From IMG/VR virus record IMGVR_UViG_3300008261_000018, positions 1-64,000 of that record: DNA of 64,000 bases. One strand, given 5' to 3'. A model generated the notes under the pieces. The model was not told where the DNA came from and searched no databases. It saw nothing but the letters and a program-made list of their open reading frames with translations. Origin of the DNA: a virus. Of the stretch, positions 50 to 63,487 are shown one piece after another; within the stretch, counting starts at the first letter, position 1, and the number at the start of each line of letters is the position of its first letter. Both the position numbers and the translations under genes were made by a program.

Positions 50-187
50 ATGACTGAAATCAAAGACGTCCTCGGTGAGCTCTACCCCGAGATCGCCGAC
101 TTCCTGGCCGAGCAGGCTTACTTCAGCCAGCTCGCCATGCAAGAGGAGTACGACCACCTCCTCGAGCTCATCCCTGCTCGGCAGTGA
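50..187 (+). CDS. Small hypothetical protein (45 aa, MTEIKDVLGELYPEIADF...)
   Basis: Read manually; lies between the motif and a terminator, with phage-like codon usage. Confidence 0.6.
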   Translation: MTEIKDVLGELYPEIADFLAEQAYFSQLAMQEEYDHLLELIPARQ

Positions 188-206
188 CGCGAGTTTCTGA
201 CACTCC

Positions 207-236
207 GCCCCGGTGGCCCTGCTGCCGGGGCTCTTT
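207..236 (+). terminator. Intrinsic terminator-like hairpin
   Basis: GCCCCGG...CCGGGGC followed by TCTTT. Confidence 0.55.
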
Positions 237-285
237 CATGTCAACCTGCACGCCAGGTCGGACGTAACGCAACCCACATCACACC

Positions 286-1977
286 ATGCAATTCACCGTT
301 CCATCCACCCTCCAGCAGCGCATCGCCAAGTACGACCCCGAACTGCGCCGCAGACTCAAGGCCGAGGCCGCTTCCCAGCGCTCGGCCACACGGGGTCCCT
401 CCTACCCACTTGGCCTGCCGGTCGGACTGATCCCTCCTGGGATCGTCCCGGCCGACGCTTTCCTGCGGGCGCTGCAAACCATCAACACCTCTCCCGCCGT
501 TCGTCAGCACGAGCACTGGCTCGACGACGACGGCAACTTCAAAGCCGTCATCTGGCATGCCAATGCCGGCAGCGGCCGCAAACTCTGGGTCGCCGCCTAC
601 GCCGATCCCACCGAGGGGCTGCATCTGGCATGGGCCGCCAGACCAGGTGCAGCCAATGCGCCGCACCGGCTTTACCTCTACGAGGGAACGCCCGGCTTTA
701 ATCCCTTCAAAGCTGACACCGCCGAGGATCTCGAGTGCGGTCGCTCCACCTTCCGTGTGCACCGCTGGCATTTCACAGAAGCCAGCGTTGCCAGCGATCC
801 CCGCTACCTCCACGTCGCCAACATCTGGACCGTTGGCCAAGGCAACGGCCGCGCCGCTTGTTCTGATCGCGAGTTCATCCAGCAGACAGGCGACCGCGTC
901 CACCGCTACGCCACATCCATGCTCAGCAAGTCCTGGGAAGAGCGGGGCAACTGTCCCTTCGCTCGCGTCCAGGACACCTGGACCTCCATCCTCAGCAACT
1001 CAGGCGCACCGGCGAACTGGGTGCCGTCCCATTCAGACCTCCTGAAAGGCACCCCGATTGATACGCCCTGGTTCCGCAACCAGATCCAGGGCAGGCTCAA
1101 CGACATGCTCACTGAGTACGACGCACCAGTGGCGTCACCTCACCGCATTCGCAATCACTGGGCTGCCCTGAAGGATCAGTGCAAGGGCCTCAAGCCCATC
1201 ACTGAGATCTGGCCCGACGCCAGCCTTGATCATCTTCAAGCGCTCTGGCCCTTCAGCGATCAGATCAGCCGGCGGCTTTCCATCGACGACATCACCTGCG
1301 CCAACCAGCGCTACAGCCCCGGCGGCTTCCGGGCGCATGGCGAGAACCCAGTGATCGCCTGGATCAGGGAGCACCTGCCCCTGGCCACCTACGTCCACTG
1401 GATGCGCCGTGCCGCCGAGGAGAAAGACAACTACTGGTACTCCGACATCCGCCAGTTCAACCAGCAACTGGCCGCCTACATCACCAATGGCATGCAGTGG
1501 TCCGACGAGCAGCAGCGCTGGGTTGGCGTGCGCGAGCTGCCCAAGCCCAAGCGCCTGCGCCTCTCTGACCTCAACCGCCAACTGGAAGAGCGGCTCTGGA
1601 AAGTCAAGACCCCTGATGCACCCCTGCCTCAGGATCTTTTCCCGAGTCCCGTGCGCGTCACCACCAGTGACACACGGCTCTCGTTCTTCCAGCCCAACTC
1701 CGTCCACCAGCTGGCTGAGTGGGGCAACGCCGTCCGCAATTGCGTCGGCAATGGCACCTACGCCGATCGCATCAAGAAGTTCCAGAACTTCATCGTGCTC
1801 GGCATGGTCGACGGCAAGCCCACCTTCACCATCCAGCTCAGCCACCGAGACGGCCGGCTCCACACCGACCAGGTCGTCTCCATCTCCAACCAAGCACTGA
1901 GCGCCGACCAACGCCTGCTCTACCAGCAAGGCATGGAACTGGCGCTCGTCCAGCAAGCCGAGGCACTCGCTCAATGA
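286..1977 (+). CDS. PcfJ-like domain protein
   Basis: 563 aa; C-terminal LAEWGNAVRNCVGNGTY resembles the PcfJ L..EG..M.HCVG.Y motif. Confidence 0.65.
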   Translation: MQFTVPSTLQQRIAKYDPELRRRLKAEAASQRSATRGPSYPLGLPVGLIPPGIVPADAFLRALQTINTSPAVRQHEHWLDDDGNFKAVIWHANAGSGRKLWVAAYADPTEGLHLAWAARPGAANAPHRLYLYEGTPGFNPFKADTAEDLECGRSTFRVHRWHFTEASVASDPRYLHVANIWTVGQGNGRAACSDREFIQQTGDRVHRYATSMLSKSWEERGNCPFARVQDTWTSILSNSGAPANWVPSHSDLLKGTPIDTPWFRNQIQGRLNDMLTEYDAPVASPHRIRNHWAALKDQCKGLKPITEIWPDASLDHLQALWPFSDQISRRLSIDDITCANQRYSPGGFRAHGENPVIAWIREHLPLATYVHWMRRAAEEKDNYWYSDIRQFNQQLAAYITNGMQWSDEQQRWVGVRELPKPKRLRLSDLNRQLEERLWKVKTPDAPLPQDLFPSPVRVTTSDTRLSFFQPNSVHQLAEWGNAVRNCVGNGTYADRIKKFQNFIVLGMVDGKPTFTIQLSHRDGRLHTDQVVSISNQALSADQRLLYQQGMELALVQQAEALAQ

Positions 1978-54383: not shown

Positions 54384-55511
54384 TCAAAAGAGGGACTTGC
54401 CGTCGTAACCCGCCAGCTCTAACTTCTTCGCGGCAACAAGCTTGTTCCAGTCCATCCATTCGGGTGTCTCAGTGGTATCTGGCAGGTTGTATTTGCCAAA
54501 ATCCATGCCACCCGCATTTGCGCTCAAGACCCCTGGCCATGATGCCGCGGAGCTCTCAGGCTGCATGTTGAATGCACGCTCGCCCGCGCCGGTGCTTTTC
54601 GCCTGTGGCACGATCGCCTGTAGCTCTGCCATCTTGCTGCGATTAACTCCTGCAACAACGCCCGGCTCGTTCCCGATGGTGACACCAGGAGCCACAGGTG
54701 CGCCGTCGTAAAGCGCGTACTTGGCGTTCATCAACGCCTGCTCGCCCACCGTCGGCTTCGCCTGATCAATCGTTGGTGCCGAGGGTTCACCGGCGCCCAT
54801 GGTTGGCTGACCAGCTGGGAACTTCTTCATGTACTCGCGCAGGGCCATGCCCTTGTTCGCCCGTGCCCACTCAGCCATGGCGCCGGTGTAACCCATGCCC
54901 TGGATGATCTCGTCGATCGAGCCTTCGCCAAGGGCCCGCTGCGCGGCGTAGTAGCCAGCCAGGTTGTCGCCCTCGTATTTGTCCTGCAGGGCGAGATCTT
55001 TCATCGCCTTGCCCTGCTCGGTATTCCAGTACTCCTTGGAGGCGTACTGCTGCATCATGCGGCGCTGCTCGGACTCGCGGGCACGCGCAGCAGGATCGCC
55101 GTAAGAGTCAGGACGCTGCAGACCAGGGGCGACAGGCGGCGGCGCCTGATCTTTGGATGGGTCGATGGTCGGCGGGGCGGAACCCTCCCCCATCTGCGCT
55201 TTCCAGATGGCGTTTTGCTTTTCGCCTACGCTGATCGCCTGGTCAGCCTCGGCCTTGAGCCTGGCCTGCTTCGCCAGCTCTTTATCCATCCAGCCCCCGT
55301 AGCCAGGGATCCAGCCCAAGTACTGTTTACCGAGCTGCGCTTGCTGGGCAAGTGCGGACGCGTTCTGACTCAGAATTCTCTGACGCGCTAATTCTGCCTC
55401 GGTCTCTCGCCTGCTGGCGCGTGTCCGTGAAGCCGCTAGCGCGTCATTGTAATTCTTGTGCGCCTTCCCCTGATCATCGACGTATCGACCGTCCGGCAGT
55501 TTGTAGCCCAT
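54384..55511 (-). CDS. Hypothetical virion-region protein
   Basis: 375 aa ORF. Confidence 0.65.
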   Translation of the reverse strand: MGYKLPDGRYVDDQGKAHKNYNDALAASRTRASRRETEAELARQRILSQNASALAQQAQLGKQYLGWIPGYGGWMDKELAKQARLKAEADQAISVGEKQNAIWKAQMGEGSAPPTIDPSKDQAPPPVAPGLQRPDSYGDPAARARESEQRRMMQQYASKEYWNTEQGKAMKDLALQDKYEGDNLAGYYAAQRALGEGSIDEIIQGMGYTGAMAEWARANKGMALREYMKKFPAGQPTMGAGEPSAPTIDQAKPTVGEQALMNAKYALYDGAPVAPGVTIGNEPGVVAGVNRSKMAELQAIVPQAKSTGAGERAFNMQPESSAASWPGVLSANAGGMDFGKYNLPDTTETPEWMDWNKLVAAKKLELAGYDGKSLF

Positions 55512-55514
55512 TGT

Positions 55515-56000
55515 CTACCTCCAGCTGATTGAGCCTGTTGCCTGGGCGATGCGCGTGCCCACGGCGGTGTCTGCTGGCCCCGGGATGGCCATGATGAATT
55601 CAGCGCCGGCACGCTCAAAGGCGTAACGGCGGACCTCGTCGCGGCGATAGTTCGCCACATACAAGGTCTCAGCCAGGCGATCTACCTCCCGCAGGTAGAC
55701 CTCCCGGTAGTCGCGATCAGCCTTCAGCGGATCAGACGAATAGATCGCACGATCCGTATCGCCTGTGATTCGCTCGATCCGACTGGGCTGAGGCTGATCT
55801 TCAACGCGGAAGATCTGCGAGACCTTGTACGCCTTATCGCAGCGATCAAGGTGCTCGAGCACCCGTGCGTAGAAGTAGCTATCAGGCACCCGCGCCATAG
55901 CCTCCTCCAATCTGGCGACATCGCCAGCGGGGAGGTTGGCACCTACGTTGTAGCCCAGGTGAAACCTGCAGCGACTTTTGTCGTAGTTGTTAAGTTCCAG
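55515..56000 (-). CDS. Putative head completion/adaptor protein, predicted CTG start
   Basis: Frame is open from CTG at 56000 (LELNNYDKSRCRFHLGY...); GAGG RBS and TAGAAT hexamer upstream. Confidence 0.65.
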   Translation of the reverse strand: MELNNYDKSRCRFHLGYNVGANLPAGDVARLEEAMARVPDSYFYARVLEHLDRCDKAYKVSQIFRVEDQPQPSRIERITGDTDRAIYSSDPLKADRDYREVYLREVDRLAETLYVANYRRDEVRRYAFERAGAEFIMAIPGPADTAVGTRIAQATGSISWR

Positions 56001-56037
56001 GGAACCTCAACGCGACCTGGGCCTCATTCTAAGAAGC

Positions 56038-56469
56038 TCAGCCGATGTAGATCAGATCTTCTGCAATCACCTCGTCCCAATCCACGCGGCCGATCTTGCG
56101 CAGTTGCTCGAGATTCTTGAATCGCTCGCCGGGCAGAGACAGGCGCAGCTCGACAATCTTCTTGGCGGTTGCGTAGCCAATACCCTTGACGTGCTTGGCG
56201 ATGCCTTCAGCGGTGGCCACGTTGAGGTTCAAGCGGGTATCCGCAGGGATCGCGGATTCGGGCAGCTTGTCCTCATCCTCCTTGGGTTCTGCACTTTGGG
56301 GCTCGATCGACACCCCAGTGCGACCCTTGCCGGGTTCGTACGAGACAAGATCAGCCAGGGCCACATAGCTCACAGAGCCAGTGCTGTTCTTGACCATCGC
56401 CCACTCCTTGTCGTGGTGGCCGATGAATTCAACGATCTGACCGTTCTTGGTGTTCTGGTACAGCGCCAT
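56038..56469 (-). CDS. Helix-hairpin-helix (ComEA-like) DNA-binding protein
   Basis: LNLNVATAE.I...VKGIG...AKKIV..R....GE.F..LEQL. Confidence 0.8.
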   Translation of the reverse strand: MALYQNTKNGQIVEFIGHHDKEWAMVKNSTGSVSYVALADLVSYEPGKGRTGVSIEPQSAEPKEDEDKLPESAIPADTRLNLNVATAEGIAKHVKGIGYATAKKIVELRLSLPGERFKNLEQLRKIGRVDWDEVIAEDLIYIG

Positions 56470-56476
56470 AAGACAC

Positions 56477-56510
56477 AAAAAAGAGGGCGCCTGACTTTGC
56501 AGACGCCCTC
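56477..56510 (-). terminator. Intrinsic terminator after capsid genes
   Basis: GAGGGCG...CGCCCTC followed by T6 on - strand. Confidence 0.7.
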
Positions 56511-56531
56511 ATTGTAGGGATAAACAACCGA

Positions 56532-57170
56532 TCAGGACTCGGTGATGAACGGCAGGTAAGTGCTGTTCACGTCGGGCACCACATCTTCGATGTAGTAGCA
56601 GACTTCAACCACGATCGGAGTACCGCCAGTGGCGGTGGAGGTCAGGGTGGAGCCAGCGGCGGTGCCGGTGCTGTCGGTGACGAACACCTTCAGAGTCTCG
56701 GCGCCGGTCAGAGCCACGGGAGTGATCAGACCTTTGCTGTTAGCGACGGGAGCCACGGTGCCGCCGGAGACGGCCACGGCCGAAGAGGTCGTGGAGACTG
56801 CGGTAGCGGTGATGGTGTCGTCGTTCGCCAGGGCATCGGCCACCTTCAGGCGGTTGGTGTTGGTACCAACCAGGCCAGAGAAGGCGGTGCCCACGCCACG
56901 GTCCTTGCGCACATCGGGCACGCGGATGCCAACGCGGTAGATGTTGGCGCCAGCGGGCACGGTCAGACCGGTGATGTCGGGACGGGGCTTGTCGTCCTGA
57001 CGCAGGTCGGGGCTAGGGATGGTGATATCGAAGCTGGTACCACCAGTTGCACCCACCAGTGCGTAGCCGATCACCTGGTAGTAGGTGCGGCCGGGGAGAG
57101 CCACAACAGGCTGACCCTGGTAGCTGCTCAGTTCGGTAACCCAGTTACCGGGGTAGATCTTCTTCGCCAT
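56532..57170 (-). CDS. Capsid decoration/minor capsid protein
   Basis: Directly after MCP; AGGAGG RBS; Thr/Ala-rich with strong codon bias. Confidence 0.7.
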   Translation of the reverse strand: MAKKIYPGNWVTELSSYQGQPVVALPGRTYYQVIGYALVGATGGTSFDITIPSPDLRQDDKPRPDITGLTVPAGANIYRVGIRVPDVRKDRGVGTAFSGLVGTNTNRLKVADALANDDTITATAVSTTSSAVAVSGGTVAPVANSKGLITPVALTGAETLKVFVTDSTGTAAGSTLTSTATGGTPIVVEVCYYIEDVVPDVNSTYLPFITES

Positions 57171-57186
57171 TGTTCGTTACCTCCTA

Positions 57187-57911
57187 TCAGTACACGAAGC
57201 TGTAGGCGACGGTGATGAAGTCCTTGTTCAGGATCTCAAAACCGGCGAAGAGCGACCAGATCATGATAATAAAACGACTGAAATCGTCGTTGTTATTCAA
57301 CAGGATCTGAGCGTTATTACCACCGATACCCACGCCCACGGCTTGAGGGCCGAAGAACAGCATGGGGGCGGCAGTAGTCACAGCAGAGGTGATCGACGCA
57401 TCAGCGATGGTCACCTGCAGAGACTTCTCGGGGAGGTTGGTCGACTCGAACCAGCGGACACCCTCAAAGAGGAAGCCGGTAGGCATCACGGGCTGACCAG
57501 CCACGAAGCCTGCCTGGCCGTAAGCGGGACCCATGCCATAGAAGAAGTTGGCGTTGGGAGCCTGCTCGGGCTGCAGGGGGTTGACCATACCGTTACCCGC
57601 GTAACGAGCGATCTCACGGAACGCGTCGTTCTGGCGCAGGTGCATCATTGCGGTGGGATCCGCGATGCAACGGTAGTAGCCATCGGCGAAGGTCGGGACA
57701 TTGCGCTTGCGCATGTCCTTGACCACAGCCAGGAGGTCGGTCTTGACGTCGAACTTCGCAGACTGACCGGCGCTGTAGCTCAGATAAGGAGCAGCAGAAC
57801 CTTTGGTCTTGTTCAGGGGGTAGTAGTAACCACCCTGGGTGCTGTCGGCCTTGCCATTGGCTTCGGCTTTGAACAGCTCGTCAGCAAACACGCGGTCTCG
57901 CCAGCGCCTAT
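57187..57911 (-). CDS. Major capsid protein, exon 2
   Basis: Spliced junction reads LLDD-Y-RRWRDRVFADELF; HK97-like P-domain motifs (GFLFEGVRWFESTNLP; FFGPQAVG; DDFSRF...W). Confidence 0.85.
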
Positions 57912-58360
57912 CACTACTGCCCCGGAGGGCTGCGAGGCTCTTTATCCTCGCACTTGCTCTTTGTCATCGAGCAAGGTCAGACTATATCTTCACCATCCTT
58001 GAACATCTGAAGACCCCCTTGAACGCGTTGTCGCGCGAAGCGCTTGAGCTGAGCGCTTACGCCTGGAACGCAAGTACAGGGTCTTCTTCAGTTGACAAGG
58101 TGCAGGTGCGGGGCACTCGTGGGTCCTTTACCGAGTTTCCTCTCGGGACCTAGTCGTTGAACCTGCCGGCTTGTTGGCCGGATTGGCTGCTGATTACCCA
58201 TGCAGCGACAGGATTTTTAAGCTTTCACGATTGCCCTTCCGGGCTGCGTTGTAGCTCCTGAGCTTTTTCCGACCGCTGGCTTGGTCGGGAAGGGCTTCCA
58301 GCAATTCACCCCGTGTTGCCCTAGACGTTTCCGACTAGGCGACCACAAGCCTTTGGGCCG
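57912..58360 (-). mobile_element. Group I intron (449 nt, no internal ORF) in major capsid gene
   Basis: P GAAUUGCUGGAA (58296-58307), Q AAUCAGCAGCC (58185-58195), R GUUCAACGACUA (58151-58162), S AAGAUAUAGUCU (57979-57990); P1 GACU/GGUC with U-G at the 5' splice site; terminal G. Confidence 0.93.
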
Positions 58361-58778
58361 AGTCATCCAGCAATGTCAGGCTTCCAATCGACTGATGGAA
58401 GACGTTCAGGTTGCCGGTATCCAGCAGCAGGCGCTGGGCGGTCAGCAGGGTCTCACGAGCCACCTTGAAGGTGGACGGAGCGGTGGGATCAAGGGGATCA
58501 GCGGGACCGGTGTACTCCTTGAGCGTCACCAGGACCTTGTCCTTGACGATATTGCGGCTAGATGCAGTGCCCAGCGTTTGATCGGCAGTGCGCTCGCGGG
58601 AATCCTTGTTGCCAGGATTGCCCCAGAAGCGGTAACGATCGAGCTGAACAGTCTGGCCCGGCTGCTTGGCGAAGTCATGCACGACGACGGGCTCAACCGC
58701 CATCTCGATGATGTAGCCAGGGTGGGGCCGATAAAGCTCTGCGCCTAGCAGCTTGGGAAAGTCATTATCGATCCACAT
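58361..58778 (-). CDS. Major capsid protein, exon 1
   Basis: MWIDNDFPKLLGAELYRPHP...KQPGQTVQLDRYRF; spliced CDS is 1143 nt (380 aa). Confidence 0.85.
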
Positions 58779-58868
58779 GGGTCGACAGGCTCCTCAGCTG
58801 GTAGAAGAAACAGCACGCAGAACGCGCGCTTGCTCTTACTATAAAGTCGATTTGTAGGGTGAAAAAAT

Positions 58869-59582
58869 TTGGACGCGGCGGATGTCCGAGGCCTCCTGGG
58901 CCTACTCCTCCCTGACGGCAGCCTTGTCCCATATCGCAGTCCAGCAGGGGGTTACATCCAGCTGACGCTGACTGCTGGGGTTTCTGAGTCCGCATTTCTC
59001 GAGGACAAGGTCGCCGAATTTCGGCAATTCATCTCGACTTCGGCCGAAATTATTCCCTACAAGACGCGCCCCCGCGCCAACGGCAAGACGACCGAGGTGC
59101 TGCGCTTTCGGGTCTCGACCAACAAGCTGCGCCCTGTTTACAACCTTCTCTACCCGGGCGGCGAACGGCAAATCACTCAGAACGCTCTGGATCTCCTGGG
59201 CGCCAAGGCTGCCGCGTGGTGCTGGGCCGAAGGAGCTCGGCTGAACCGTGATGGATCTTCGTGCCTAGCCCGCGTCGGTAACTCCGTCGATGAAGGACAC
59301 ATGGTGTCGTCGTGGATTGAAGTCCTCACCGGCGCACGCTCCGAGATCGAGGGAGAACTGATCAAGCCAAGGCTTCGTTTTGATGCCGAACAGACCCGCA
59401 AGATCCGGGAGTCCTTGGCTCCCTACGCACCGCCCAGTCGTCAACACCTTTTCACCGGAGAGCAGTGGGATGTCCACTCAATTCGTAGCGCGCGTACTGA
59501 GCTACAGCATCGGCAAGGGGAAAATTGCTCTCAAGGGGAGCCGCAAGAGGCCCTGGCTGGAACTCAAGCGACCCGAGACTGA
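58869..59582 (+). CDS. Free-standing LAGLIDADG (two-motif) homing endonuclease-like protein 1
   Basis: GLLLPDGSL (motif 1), LYNLLYP, AAAWCWAEG (motif 2). Confidence 0.7.
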   Translation: MDAADVRGLLGLLLPDGSLVPYRSPAGGYIQLTLTAGVSESAFLEDKVAEFRQFISTSAEIIPYKTRPRANGKTTEVLRFRVSTNKLRPVYNLLYPGGERQITQNALDLLGAKAAAWCWAEGARLNRDGSSCLARVGNSVDEGHMVSSWIEVLTGARSEIEGELIKPRLRFDAEQTRKIRESLAPYAPPSRQHLFTGEQWDVHSIRSARTELQHRQGENCSQGEPQEALAGTQATRD

Positions 59583-60048
59583 GCGCGCGTATCTCGGTTC
59601 CCAGGTCTACCAGCTACGCAAACTCCATCCCGGGGAGCTCGAGATCTTCTGGGACCGAGTGCCAACCGAGGGTTTCTACGACCTCGATCGAGCCAGGATT
59701 CAAAGCGATGAACTCTGGCGCGCCTACGAGCTCCTCTACCCCCGCGACAAATTCACGCTGTCACCGACCGTGCTCGAGCTCACGGGGCTCCAGGGCGCTT
59801 GCGCGCTCTGGCTTGATCACGGCTCCTGGTATGGCCGAGCAGGGGAGATCACAGGGGGCTACAGCCCTCACGAGAAGAAGCTCATCGGTGAGTGGTTGAC
59901 CTCTTTGGGTTTCGAGGCCGCGAACAAGCGCGTTGACAGCCGATGCCGCCTTTGCATCTCCCCTGATTCGATGCGCAAATTCATCCCGGCGATCCGCCCG
60001 CTCGTACACGCATCGATGCGTAGCAAGCTTCAACGTAAAAGGACCTAG
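59470..60048 (+). CDS. LAGLIDADG-like protein 2, acidic catalytic residues apparently lost
   Basis: SYSIGKGKI (D to K), YELLYP, ALWLDHG (DDG to DHG), ...F...IRP.VH.SM..KL C-terminus typical of LAGLIDADG_2. Confidence 0.65.
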   Translation: MSTQFVARVLSYSIGKGKIALKGSRKRPWLELKRPETERAYLGSQVYQLRKLHPGELEIFWDRVPTEGFYDLDRARIQSDELWRAYELLYPRDKFTLSPTVLELTGLQGACALWLDHGSWYGRAGEITGGYSPHEKKLIGEWLTSLGFEAANKRVDSRCRLCISPDSMRKFIPAIRPLVHASMRSKLQRKRT

Positions 60049-60116
60049 GCTGAATTCTGCCCCGAAGCAGAACTACGTCAGGGGCCTCCAGGAGTTCGAG
60101 TTTTTGTAGTTTCCTC

Positions 60117-60281
60117 GTGGCGATTCCAGATCAGACGGAACAGCAGCAGCCCCCTCCCTCGCCCAATCCGAGCCAGCGCGGGGAGACCGACTACTGCATT
60201 GCCTCCGGCCTCAGGCGGAAGTTTCTCGATTACTGCTACGAAAATCCAGGCGCCGAGGAGTGCCGGATCTATGACGTCTAG
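60117..60281 (+). CDS. CP12-like peptide (C-terminal CP12 motif only)
   Basis: Read manually: ...FLDYCYENPGAEECRIYDV matches CP12 C-terminal C..NP...EC..YD. Confidence 0.7.
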   Translation: MAIPDQTEQQQPPPSPNPSQRGETDYCIASGLRRKFLDYCYENPGAEECRIYDV

Positions 60282-60341
60282 CCCACCTCGGAGGGCCTGA
60301 ATCAATCTCTTAGACTGCATTCATCGCGATAGCCTCGCCAG

Positions 60342-60782
60342 ATGGCAGTCTTCAATAAACTGAATGGCTTTGTCGAGCATCTCAGCCTTGGCGTCCACAA
60401 CCTGGCGACCAACCAGCTCGTCATCGCTCTAAGCAACGTCAACCCTACCGCCGAAGCGACTCCGCCGACCGGGACGACCGCTAACTGCATCCTGGCCAAT
60501 GTGACGCAGGTCTCATACACCAACCTAAGCAGCCGCAATATCACCACAACAAGCTCCGCGCAGTCGTCCGGAACTTACAGGCTCGTTCTCGCAGACTTGA
60601 CCCTTAATGCGACAGGGACCGTCGGCCCTTTCCGCTATGTCTACGTCTTCAATGACACTCCGACTTCCCCGGCGGACCCGTTGATTGGTTATTACGACTA
60701 CGGCTCGTCGCTAACTCTCAGCAACGGCGAAAGTCTCACTATTGACTTCGATCAAGTGAACGGCGCCCTGACCCTCGCGTAA
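60342..60782 (+). CDS. Virion/tail structural protein
   Basis: [12 protein letters not shown]...[16 protein letters not shown]...IDF; TAGACT hexamer upstream. Confidence 0.75.
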
Positions 60783-60805: not shown

Positions 60806-62878
60806 ATGTCTATTTCTTTCATCTCAACTGCGGTTAGTTCCGCCACAACCCTTGCTCTCCCAGCGCATCAGGCAGGGGACGTCATCGTACTACTTGCCTA
60901 CAACTCACTTAGTAGCACATATCCAACCATCCCGATCGCCTCGGGAACGGTCCCCGCTTGGTCCAATGTAACCAATAATACGAGCGGAACCAGCGCGGGG
61001 CGACTGCTTTACGCGGTTGCCAGCAGTAGCTCGCATACCAGTGGCACCTGGACAAACGCTACCAGGCTCCTCGCAGTTGTTTACAGGGGCGCGTCGCGAA
61101 TTTCTCAGGGGTCCGTCGCGACCGGCAGCGGGACTAGCCTCTTCCATCCCTCCCTGACCCCATCCGAGGGGGCCGCTGGGAACAATATTGACGCAGTGCT
61201 CCGGGTATCCGCGCACAAGAGCGCAACCAACCTTAGCCAATCAGTTACCGGCTACACCTTCCGGAACGGTACAAGCAGTAGCACTGGCTCGACCGCCCTT
61301 CGTGATCAAGTCCAGTCCACAAGCTCTCTACCCAGCCTGTCCTTAAGTGTTAACGCGTCAAACTCTTATATAGCCTTTACTGCGATCCTTAGGGATAACA
61401 ATAGACGGCTAATCGCCGACACGCGTAACTATGTCGCGGCAGGTGCCAATGCGGTCGTATTCAGGCCGCTACCACCCTTCCCGGTCGATAGCAGCACGTA
61501 TGCATTACTTGGTGGAGTCACCGAGTTCTCCCCTGGGGTCTTCTTCGACGGGGCGGCAGGTGTATTCGCGTGCACGGGCAGTGACGCAACCCTTCGGTAC
61601 AATCAAAACCTGCTGCACGCTACTCGGCAACGCTACCAGGCCGAAGGCCCTGCGGCGGTTCTTAACTTTACTCGCCGAATCTACGCCGATGGCGGCGTTT
61701 TCGGATTAAGTGGTGGCGTCGTCACCTACCCACGCGGATACTATCTCGATCCTCTTAGTGTCCCGTATAACGTCGTAGCCCCCGAAGCCTTTCTAAAGGC
61801 GTCACTCCGCTTCATCCTGCTTAGGGGCGCGTTCAGCGTCACTGGCCGCTCAAACGCTTTCTATCGCGGCTACATCATTAACTCCAGCCCGGGCGCTTTC
61901 GCTGCAACCTGGTACGTCAGTCAGCTATATCTTTACGCTCGTGTCGTTGGTGTCTCCGCCTCCTACGAGGCCAACTGGCCTGATACGCCATTAAAGCGTG
62001 CCTTAATTGGGCTTATTTCGAGTGGCACCTTTACCTGGACCCTCAACCAAAGCGGCTTCCAATTTACCCCTCCAGCGCCTGCAAGCGGCCAACCGCGACC
62101 ACGCGCGCTGAATCCCTACGGCGGCAGTGACGACACCGGCGGATCTTTTGTCCGGCCTCAGTACGTCAAGTACAACTCTGCTAGTAAAGCGAAGGATTTC
62201 GGCATCGTCAGTAACCTCTTCTCGATAGCGGAGGGTGAGCTGGGCGGTCAGGCGGGCTCGAACACCGCTTTCTATAAGGTCGAGACCGATGGTCCCGCCC
62301 AGCTCTTTATCCAAAACAACACCGACTCCGCATTCACGAAGAACTACATTTCAGTCGGCGTCCTGGATTCAACCCGCAAGCCACTATCGCTTACCCCTCA
62401 AGGCTTCGCATATCTAAACGACAATGCGGCGACTCCAGCCCTCGAGTCAGCGGAATCCCTCCCGCCTGGGATCTATTACTTCACCATCTCCTGCAATCAG
62501 TGGCAAGCCATACCTTTCACTGTGACCATGCAGGTCATTCGCTTTAAGCCATTGATCGGTGCGGCAGGTGGAACCTTCGCCCCCTATGGACGGTTCGCCC
62601 AGGCCAAACTCTTCAGCGTTGCGACGCTGACCGCCCCATTCACGGGTACCATTCCTCCAGATAGCGCTATTGATCGGCTGTCTGGCGTGGCAACAGTGAC
62701 TGCGACTCCCTTGCTGTCATTGGCAATTATGCGTGGCGCCGCAGTTGGAACAATGGTTCCTTACGGCAGGCTCAAGCAGACTCATCGCATCTCGGGTACT
62801 GCAATTGGCAATGGGAACAGCATCGCCACCCTGAGCTCCATACCCCCCTATGGCGGTGGCTATGGCGGCGGCTATTAG
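60806..62878 (+). CDS. Tail/baseplate-like structural protein
   Basis: 690 aa Ser/Thr/Gly-rich beta protein between structural genes. Confidence 0.65.
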   Translation: MSISFISTAVSSATTLALPAHQAGDVIVLLAYNSLSSTYPTIPIASGTVPAWSNVTNNTSGTSAGRLLYAVASSSSHTSGTWTNATRLLAVVYRGASRISQGSVATGSGTSLFHPSLTPSEGAAGNNIDAVLRVSAHKSATNLSQSVTGYTFRNGTSSSTGSTALRDQVQSTSSLPSLSLSVNASNSYIAFTAILRDNNRRLIADTRNYVAAGANAVVFRPLPPFPVDSSTYALLGGVTEFSPGVFFDGAAGVFACTGSDATLRYNQNLLHATRQRYQAEGPAAVLNFTRRIYADGGVFGLSGGVVTYPRGYYLDPLSVPYNVVAPEAFLKASLRFILLRGAFSVTGRSNAFYRGYIINSSPGAFAATWYVSQLYLYARVVGVSASYEANWPDTPLKRALIGLISSGTFTWTLNQSGFQFTPPAPASGQPRPRALNPYGGSDDTGGSFVRPQYVKYNSASKAKDFGIVSNLFSIAEGELGGQAGSNTAFYKVETDGPAQLFIQNNTDSAFTKNYISVGVLDSTRKPLSLTPQGFAYLNDNAATPALESAESLPPGIYYFTISCNQWQAIPFTVTMQVIRFKPLIGAAGGTFAPYGRFAQAKLFSVATLTAPFTGTIPPDSAIDRLSGVATVTATPLLSLAIMRGAAVGTMVPYGRLKQTHRISGTAIGNGNSIATLSSIPPYGGGYGGGY

Positions 62879-62930
62879 AACTAGCCGGCTTCAAGAACTT
62901 GCCAGAATGGTTCAGTAGAGAAGTAAGTCC

Positions 62931-63353
62931 ATGGCGTTCTCGCAGTATTTTGCAACCCAGGTATTGAACTGGGTCAAGGGATCTCCGTTTCCTACTGCGC
63001 TATCGAATGTCTACGTGTCCTTGCACACCGGCGATCCCGGCTCGGCTGGCACATCGAATGATGTAACCGGCACCATCAAAGGCAGTGCAACCCGGACTAC
63101 TGTCTCGAGCGCAGCATTTACCGCCGTCGCATCTGCATCGGGCGGCGGCTTCGAGATCACTAACACTGGCGTGGTGCAGATCACAACCAGTGCCGTGAAT
63201 ACAACAACTCAGACCGTTACGCATTTCGGTATTTGGGATGCCGCAACTGGCGGCAACTTCCTCGCCTCTGGTGCACTGACAACCTCTGTCGGTGTCCAGC
63301 TTGGTGACACCGTTCAATTCAATATCGGCGCCATGGCCGTGCGTGTGATCTGA
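62931..63353 (+). CDS. Phage tail fibre-like structural protein
   Basis: YVSLHTGDPG...TVTHFGIWDAATGGNFL..GAL...GD...F. Confidence 0.75.
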   Translation: MAFSQYFATQVLNWVKGSPFPTALSNVYVSLHTGDPGSAGTSNDVTGTIKGSATRTTVSSAAFTAVASASGGGFEITNTGVVQITTSAVNTTTQTVTHFGIWDAATGGNFLASGALTTSVGVQLGDTVQFNIGAMAVRVI

Positions 63354-63487
63354 TGGCTAAGGTCAAGAAAAGCCCAACCGGCGCCATCCACAAGGAGCCA
63401 GTCGAGAAGATCACGCGCCAGGGAAACGGTCGACGCAGTCGCGCCAGTCACGGCCGCAAGCTGCGTCGCGGTCAAGGGAAGGGCTGA
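63353..63487 (+). CDS. Small basic protein MAKVKKSPTGAIHKEPVEKITRQGNG...RGQGKG
   Basis: Read manually; K.TRQG.G...RGQG motif common in aquatic phages. Confidence 0.6.
   Translation: MAKVKKSPTGAIHKEPVEKITRQGNGRRSRASHGRKLRRGQGKG

Follow-up and report, generated by a model that had tools for sequence, protein, structure and literature searches.

We analysed a window of 64,000 nucleotides (nt), the first 64 kb of the 85,174-bp virus record IMGVR_UViG_3300008261_000018, whose two ends repeat each other. The subject is a gene for the major capsid protein (MCP) that is split by a group I intron, together with two overlapping open reading frames (ORFs), A and B, which run divergently from it and resemble the homing endonuclease I-SceI in predicted fold. 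The window stretch was detected mostly in lake, freshwater and aquatic metagenome runs, and the source virus is freshwater cyanophage-like and belongs to a clade related to Synechococcus phage S-EIV1. The main features of the locus are as follows (aa, amino acids):

57187 to 57911, minus strand: MCP exon 2, codons 140-380, its first two bases completing codon 140
57912 to 58360, minus strand: group I intron of 449 nt without an intact ORF, ending in G, its borders read from the sequence
58060 to 58095, plus strand: remnant of an intron endonuclease gene, the last 11 codons and the stop, on the strand opposite to the intron
58361 to 58778, minus strand: MCP exon 1, codons 1-139 and the first base of codon 140, ending in U
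58869 to 59582, plus strand: ORF A, 237 aa, with a TTG start two codons past an in-frame stop; two-motif LAGLIDADG, I-SceI-like
59470 to 60048, plus strand: ORF B of 192 aa, starting with ATG and read in the +1 frame with respect to A; LAGLIDADG-fold paralog of A

The intron is assigned to Rfam family RF00028 by its covariance score and by an exact exon join. The family model matches positions 57953-58355 on the minus strand with 60.3 bits, against a gathering score of 50 (E 5.8e-14), and this is the sole Rfam match above threshold in the 64-kb window. The joined exons read LLDD-Y-RRWRDRVF across the junction and give an MCP of 380 aa. This protein matches the uninterrupted MCP of two related loci (L009 and L005) at 100% identity and the MCP of S-EIV1 at 70%. 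Exon 2 matches the PHROG family phrog_1357, a major head protein, with an E value of 1.1e-15.

The fold of ORF A was modelled with AlphaFold2 (AF2) from a family alignment, giving a predicted local distance difference test score (pLDDT) of 83.8 with a disordered tail. When the model was compared with the PDB using Foldseek, I-SceI chains ranked at the top (E 2.3e-9, template modelling (TM) scores 0.65/0.69), and the predicted model shows two LAGLIDADG helices within a pseudo-dimeric arrangement of two alpha-beta-beta-alpha-beta-beta-alpha units. For both A and B, I-SceI and I-WcaI were the best fold matches, followed by I-DmoI, the bI3 maturase and WhiA. Across 120 homolog clusters the catalytic positions of A are kept, D16 being found in all 119 occupied rows and E121 in all 120, and most of the listed homologs carry a precomputed PF03161 match. 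This essential invariance of the two catalytic residues speaks for A having remained a nuclease, as opposed to a binder of the WhiA kind. The ratio of nonsynonymous to synonymous substitution rates (dN/dS), calculated here and below for 15 locus pairs, is 0.02-0.13 over codons 1-198 of A and 0.6-2.0 when the overlap with B is read as the tail of A. Because dN/dS is low up to codon 198 and high in the tail, the functional A protein stops near residue 200, with the tail as an unselected read-through over the first helix of B. The start codon of A is TTG in 55 and GTG in 3 of the 58 loci that hold both genes.

ORF B encodes a basic protein (isoelectric point 9.8) that has no Pfam match. Its AF2 model (pLDDT 94.4) again finds I-SceI as the top PDB hit in Foldseek (E 6.5e-7, query TM score 0.76), and WhiA chains are matched structurally with an E value of 9.1e-5. 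The paralogy of A and B is detected by BLASTP (E 8e-7) and by hhalign (98.5% probability, E 2.2e-15). Position 16 in motif 1 of B is acidic in just 1 of 37 family members, while W114, D116 and G118 in motif 2 are invariant in all 37, and D116 aligns with the catalytic Glu of A with one extra residue ahead of the Gly. Since the motif-1 acidic residue is gone but the aligned Asp never varies, B is better described as half-dead than as plainly dead. The dN/dS values of B, 0.065-0.19 from codon 39 onwards and 0.12-0.38 where the overlap is read in the B frame, indicate that B too is under purifying selection. The reading frames are arranged in the same way throughout, B lying in the +1 frame in 58 of 58 loci with both genes, and the ATG of B mostly follows the start of A at 601 nt, with a distance of 604 nt in some loci and of 628 nt in L073. 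In most loci B has its own GGAG-type Shine-Dalgarno sequence about 9 nt ahead of its ATG.

A, B and their profiles matched no PDB chain at E <=10, tblastn with A and B against 50,697 GenBank phage records returned nothing, and neither had a match in PHROGs. Among the partial article texts that our literature search covered, supplements being outside it, none described a LAGLIDADG pair beside an S-EIV1-type capsid gene. A search with the B profile collected 493 proteins at E <=0.001 and 51 at E <=1e-30; a 405-aa protein among them was inspected as a candidate A-B fusion and is not one. Complex prediction for A(1-200) with B scored 0.00 in two runs, which gives no answer either way. The RNA contigs of three runs (X15, X16 and X17) have no cover over 58868-60200, which says nothing on the expression of A and B.

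A previous model reading of the window, made from its letters alone (the sequence-only reading), had described an MCP intron without an endonuclease and, 90 nt from the MCP start, two LAGLIDADG-like genes overlapping at 59470-59582, the first keeping its acidic motif residues (LLLPDG; WAEG) and the second having lost them (SIGKG; WLDHG). This anatomy is borne out. The intron is supported by its Rfam score and by splice borders that restore the capsid protein, the distance of 90 nt (58779-58868) and the overlap (113 nt) are as described, the two genes are paralogs with I-SceI-like folds, and the motif letters are as given, with both acidic residues retained in A; A and B run in the same direction, both away from the MCP gene. 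The intron has no intact ORF, but it keeps the end of an endonuclease gene at 58060-58095. A single point needs correcting: B has lost the acidic residue of motif 1, but the Asp of WLDHG is retained in every family member.

Origin of the intron

Two related loci, L031 and L069, carry insertions of 1.15-1.2 kb at the same MCP codon as the window intron. These insertions and the window intron align over the core of the ribozyme, but about 740 nt from the middle of the insertions have no counterpart in the window, and this part encodes an antisense two-motif protein of the 260-aa class that matches Pfam LAGLIDADG_3 (PF14528) with 36.6 and 32.4 bits, above the cut-off of 22.5. The remnant in the window intron translates to the same 11 residues that close the intron ORF of L069. 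In locus L165, the same intron likewise encodes an endonuclease. When compared by BLASTP, the endonuclease of the L031 intron showed no significant similarity to A or B. A relative of it was not found in the genome of the window itself, an empty search answer that weighs little. Based on these alignments, the window intron is a deletion derivative of an endonuclease-carrying mobile group I intron.

The flanking exons keep a further sign of this history. When the coding sequence (CDS) of the window MCP was compared with that of the intron-less locus L011, 29 mismatches were found in 1143 nt, all synonymous, and 20 of them fall in CDS positions 361-480, within about 60 nt of the exon junction at 418/419. 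This cluster looks like a co-conversion tract left by acquisition of the intron from a diverged donor. We suggest that the window intron came by homing or recombination out of such a donor and then lost about 740 nt of its endonuclease gene, while the ribozyme would still be working.

RNA sequencing data were also considered. In run X15, a circularly permuted contig of 435 nt joins 58347 to 57912, which connects the terminal G of the intron to its 14th nucleotide. GGCU, the bases before the circle site, and GACU at the 5' splice site are both able to pair with one internal guide, GGUC, and we therefore take the joint for a truncated intron circle of the usual kind, without the first 13 nt; it is the expected form, represented by one contig at a depth of 4.5 in an RNA library where DNA carry-over is possible. 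No contig with the ligated exons of the window allele was present among the RNA contigs of X15, X16 and X17. An intron-skipping joint in X17 was considered as the spliced window allele and was rejected, as its 39 replaced letters assign it to the allele of an intron-less relative. In run X16, the depth over the intron was 36, compared with 7-11 over the exons.

Distribution of the gene pair and of capsid-gene introns

We collected three samples of viral loci, each consisting of the best 80 loci of a larger hit list with near-duplicates included. For the MCP-anchored sample, MCP exon 1 was used to scan viral contigs, and the 80 best out of at least 595 loci were retained. The A-anchored sample was collected through ORF A and hence independently of an intact MCP exon 1, and a parallel HNH-anchored sample was collected through the HNH gene of a sister clade that is described below. 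Across the 80 MCP-anchored loci, the protein of MCP exon 1 is 91-100% identical.

Upstream sequence of at least 800 nt before the capsid gene is available for 72 MCP-anchored loci; A lies there in 62 and an HNH gene in 10, and no locus is without either. Where the upstream part is at least 1300 nt long (n=69), A is followed by B in 58 loci, 10 have the HNH gene and one has A without B. When mobility of A was judged by its presence or absence among close relatives, no empty site was thus found among the 72 loci, and A adjoins the MCP gene in every A-anchored locus with enough flank. The one locus with A alone is L016, where an unrelated 192-aa gene (70-648, minus strand) follows A in the place of B; it is the sole such locus. 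Four further contigs (L171-L174) lie in public metagenome-assembled genomes labelled Methanobacteriota and Phycisphaerae. Because all four hold MCP, A and B together, they are probably phage contigs that were misbinned rather than host genes.

The distribution of the pair does not follow that of the intron. In the MCP-anchored sample only 4 of 73 full-length MCP genes are interrupted, compared with the 58 of 69 loci that hold A and B, and the co-occurrence of intron and pair across relatives that the sequence-only reading had looked to is therefore not seen. The closest contig (L009/L011) has 98% nt identity to the window over MCP, A and B and carries no intron; its MCP and B proteins are identical to those of the window, and so is A if the reading of the TTG start is set aside. 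Moreover, 3 of 5 complete or nearly complete genomes with A and B hold no RF00028 match anywhere, and a maturase role therefore cannot be what maintains B.

The MCP gene of this clade is a hot spot of group I introns. Far more interrupted MCP genes were found among the A-anchored loci than in the sample anchored on exon 1, with 34 RF00028 introns in 19 submitted A-anchored loci. The insertion positions number at least eight (about nine) and lie at codons 7, 36, 48, 107, 132-139, 218, 232, 283 and 291, as approximate positions taken from the ends of tblastn segments. Most of these introns are 225-300 nt long and ORF-less, some contain LAGLIDADG_3 genes, and one group contains an HNH-like gene. 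Still, 54 of the 66 full MCP genes that adjoin A are uninterrupted.

L099, L100, L108, L117, L138, L149, L165 and others: ORF A-anchored loci with MCP introns

In four loci (L131, L156, L159 and L164), about 900 nt separate the start of A from the first aligned MCP residue, with an intron near codon 5-7 that contains an HNH-like stretch. This stretch resembles the free-standing HNH gene of the sister clade, and the same HNH type may exist in both intron-borne and free-standing form.

In the sister clade, whose MCP is 77-84% identical, a gene with NUMOD4 and HNH_3 domains takes the place and orientation of A, divergent from the MCP gene, in 11 of 11 loci:

L079, 6492 to 6899, minus strand: NUMOD4+HNH_3 gene
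L082, 5028 to 5396, minus strand: NUMOD4+HNH_3 gene
Nine further loci: NUMOD4+HNH_3 gene

This suggests that the position flanking the MCP gene is a nuclease slot, occupied by A in one clade and by the NUMOD4-HNH gene in the other. As a separate observation, loci of the HNH clade encode a full sigma-70-type factor with regions 1.2, 2, 3 and 4 about 2.5 kb upstream of the MCP gene (L079, 3590-4546, plus strand; L082, 2678-3616, plus strand).

We then compared the divergence of A and B with that of the surrounding genes. A block of 97-98% identity to L005/L009 extends over 55464-60117, spanning MCP, A and B and ending 70 nt past the B stop, and beyond it the identity drops to 78%, with the genes at 60189-60778 and 62028-63487 showing 78-83%. 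Pairwise distances of A correlate with those of MCP (rho 0.53) and of B (rho 0.62), and neighbouring genes behave likewise, the overall range being rho 0.22-0.62. The mean divergence of A (0.35) is like that of ordinary neighbours, and that of B (0.55) is higher. In the same locus pairs, synonymous divergence (dS) is 1-3 for A and B, compared with 0.2-1.1 for MCP. The distance correlations indicate that the A/B pair is inherited as the neighbouring genes are.

The two sides of the locus are separated by a divergent intergenic region, whose features are as follows:

58779 to 58868, no strand assigned: divergent intergenic region of 90 nt, with TATAGT, a hairpin, and TAGGG followed by the TTG of A
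58838 to 58843, minus strand: -10-like TATAGT, a promoter-like match at 9 of 12 positions
58812 to 58830, minus strand: hairpin in the MCP leader, its arms varying in sequence between loci

Of 42 distinct intergenic sequences, at least 90% retain the motifs TATA.TA, CCCTA and TCCAA. On the minus strand of the window (58812-58843), TATAGT is directly followed by the hairpin, then by a T-rich run and the MCP start. The fold energy of the hairpin was no better than that of shuffled sequences (z -0.42). RNA contigs of one study end at 58811-58814, by the leader hairpin.

Explanations of the locus

Based on these observations, we consider it probable that the locus consists of a decayed mobile intron beside an independent, clade-fixed nuclease gene and its non-canonical paralog. 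A and B are tandem overlapping paralogs, fixed in the S-EIV1-related clade. A is most likely a weakly translated protein, given its TTG start, and a sequence-specific DNA endonuclease of the I-SceI type. We infer that it would cut the genomes of related co-infecting phages and so favour its own capsid-side block, which would amount either to intronless homing taken to fixation or to interference competition, and that it would spare the site where the intron is inserted. B is most likely a derivative that binds nucleic acid without cleaving it, or with nicking at most, and whose function is independent of the intron. Because a nuclease of another family fills the same slot in the sister clade, the nuclease seems to be retained for a function of its own and not merely as a parasite.

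Several results weigh against this explanation. The ORF A match to Pfam LAGLIDADG_2, at 24.1 bits, lies below the cut-off of 25, and three loci (L055-L057), which are outside the 120-cluster set, have Gln in place of E121. The L031 and L069 introns, from which the history of the window intron was read, are themselves under the Rfam gathering score, that of L069 with 38.9 bits. The absence of empty sites leaves a homing endonuclease no obvious naive target, and because A is never absent, simple homing does not explain the long-term purifying selection on it. The proposed activities of A and B rest on sequence and predicted fold. In addition, MCP genes are interrupted in 22 of 78 loci with A/B and in 3 of 79 with the HNH gene, and after clustering at 95% nt identity in 15 of 46 clusters against 2 of 54, an excess of about nine-fold. 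Some link between the pair and introns is possible, and no other result leaves space for a functional one, yet this is a single contrast of two clades and may be a clade effect.

This excess bears on other explanations that connect the pair with introns. The sequence-only reading had put forward a three-part system that cuts intron-less capsid genes of competing phages, with B as a maturase or regulator; in this system A would cut at the insertion site and the intron would protect the genome of A itself. Its layout resembles that of F-CphI beside the psbA intron of S-PM2, where, in the part of the source available, the intron is described as preventing self-cleavage (PMC6083498). The window intron is indeed ORF-less, A retains its catalytic residues, and introns are enriched in the A/B clade. 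However, the pair occurs whether the MCP gene contains the intron or not, and the intron lineage possesses an endonuclease of its own, encoded in the same intron of L031, L069 and L165 and surviving as a remnant in the window. A protein cutting the intron-less MCP at this site would cut its own genome, because L009/L011 holds an identical A and no intron. The insertion-site sequences of intron-less A/B loci and of HNH-clade loci show the same wobble-only variation (26 loci lie outside this comparison), and most capsid genes beside A are uninterrupted. We therefore regard this system as most improbable. A broader version of collaborative homing, in which A breaks DNA in or next to the capsid gene of co-infecting relatives, repair from the genome with A carries over whatever the adjoining capsid gene contains, ORF-less introns at many sites included, and B is a factor for self-protection or targeting, would explain both the nine-fold interruption excess and the synonymous divergence of MCP below that of A and B in the same genome pairs; we judge it distinctly unlikely. 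A very unlikely proposal is that B, alone or together with A, assists splicing in trans, which would make introns tolerable in a capsid gene that is highly expressed and let them accumulate. The same excess, the occurrence of up to four RF00028 matches in one MCP gene (L099), the degenerate active site of B, as in LAGLIDADG maturases, and the bI3 maturase among the fold matches are in line with it, whereas the intron-free A/B genomes, the dN/dS of B (0.07-0.19) in locus pairs with an uninterrupted MCP, and the existence of A without B in L016 are not. The intron circle contig in an RNA library also speaks against a need for such help, and phage group I introns commonly self-splice.

The other proposal of the sequence-only reading was a domesticated pair regulating late transcription, which would bind the divergent MCP/A promoter region or other late promoters without cutting. 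One part of it stands, as purifying selection acts on the pair, which is syntenic and fixed in the clade. The conserved promoter-like region with TATAGT adjoins the pair, B is basic and lacks a full active site, and WhiA chains are among the structural matches. However, the two metal-binding residues of A are essentially invariant, which points to a nuclease instead of a WhiA-like binder, since a pure binder needs none. No helix-turn-helix or other extra domain was found in Pfam matches at E <=1 or in the AF2 models, which show the LAGLIDADG fold alone, and WhiA ranks far below I-SceI in the fold comparison. The HNH gene in the same slot of the sister clade also suggests that the slot calls for a nuclease. 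Regulation without cutting is thus unlikely in our view.

Under the explanation that we favour, an independent nuclease gene beside a decayed intron, the locus is of interest as an I-SceI-like gene and an overlapping half-degenerate paralog that are kept under strong purifying selection across the sampled loci of a widespread aquatic phage clade. Free-standing homing endonuclease genes of phages are usually sporadic and mostly belong to the GIY-YIG or HNH families. The A/B pair may therefore lend itself to studying the benefit that phages draw from such enzymes, and the intron-rich capsid gene could serve for the study of intron gain, endonuclease loss and hitch-hiking. Should the pair have nothing to do with introns and A serve simply as a nuclease in competition, it would be a useful but ordinary addition.

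Relation to known systems

The closest structural relatives of A and B are I-SceI and I-WcaI, which are monomeric two-motif enzymes of Pfam family LAGLIDADG_2. Both window proteins share with them a length of about 200 aa and two alpha-beta-beta-alpha-beta-beta-alpha halves in the predicted models, and A has the Asp and Glu that close the two motif helices. I-SceI is encoded by an intron, whereas A and B are free-standing, tandem, overlapping and clade-fixed genes; they have no sequence-level match to any PDB chain, and B is without the motif-1 acidic residue. LAGLIDADG maturases such as bI3, and WhiA, resemble B in combining the LAGLIDADG fold with a degenerate active site. However, B retains an Asp that never varies, consists of the LAGLIDADG fold without a further domain and is found in genomes free of introns, while LAGLIDADG maturases are encoded within the intron that they assist, and WhiA has a C-terminal helix-turn-helix domain and lacks catalytic residues.

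Phage systems with related layouts differ in the type of nuclease and in how it is tied to the intron. In cyanophage S-PM2, the available text describes F-CphI as a free-standing nuclease gene beside the ORF-less psbA group I intron, with collaborative homing (PMC6083498). As in the window, a free-standing nuclease gene adjoins a gene with an ORF-less group I intron in a cyanophage-type virus. As far as that account goes, the two differ in that F-CphI has an Endo VII motif and A is of the LAGLIDADG type, and at our locus the nuclease is present regardless of the intron, whose lineage has its own endonuclease.

Free-standing homing endonuclease genes have also been reported to cluster near terminase, ribonucleotide reductase and capsid genes as "HEG islands", according to the part of the article that we draw on (Barth et al. 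2023, PMC10448857). The A gene is similarly placed beside a capsid gene at the edge of a block of high nt identity. The genes in those islands are, in the same portion, mostly of the T5orf172 and HNH types and variable in presence (PMC10448857), whereas a LAGLIDADG pair without any empty site among 72 loci stands here. For PhiPA3, the accessible portion of the source presents gp210 as an intron-encoded HNH endonuclease that acts in interference competition against a co-infecting phage (PMC11620839). It gives a precedent for an advantage of a homing endonuclease over co-infecting phages, although gp210 differs from A, a free-standing LAGLIDADG gene, in both family and location, and competition at our locus is proposed from sequence.

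Finally, group I-like introns in capsid genes are described, in the text on hand, for mycobacteriophage LittleE and lactococcal phage Tuc2009 as single introns with an HNH gene (PMC3706429). The endonuclease gene of LittleE's intron has the opposite direction of transcription (PMC3706429), as in L031, L069 and L076. Compared with these single introns, as far as the source text covers them, the capsid genes of the clade studied here stand out by LAGLIDADG_3 genes within introns, by insertions at eight or more approximate positions and by as many as four introns in a single MCP gene.

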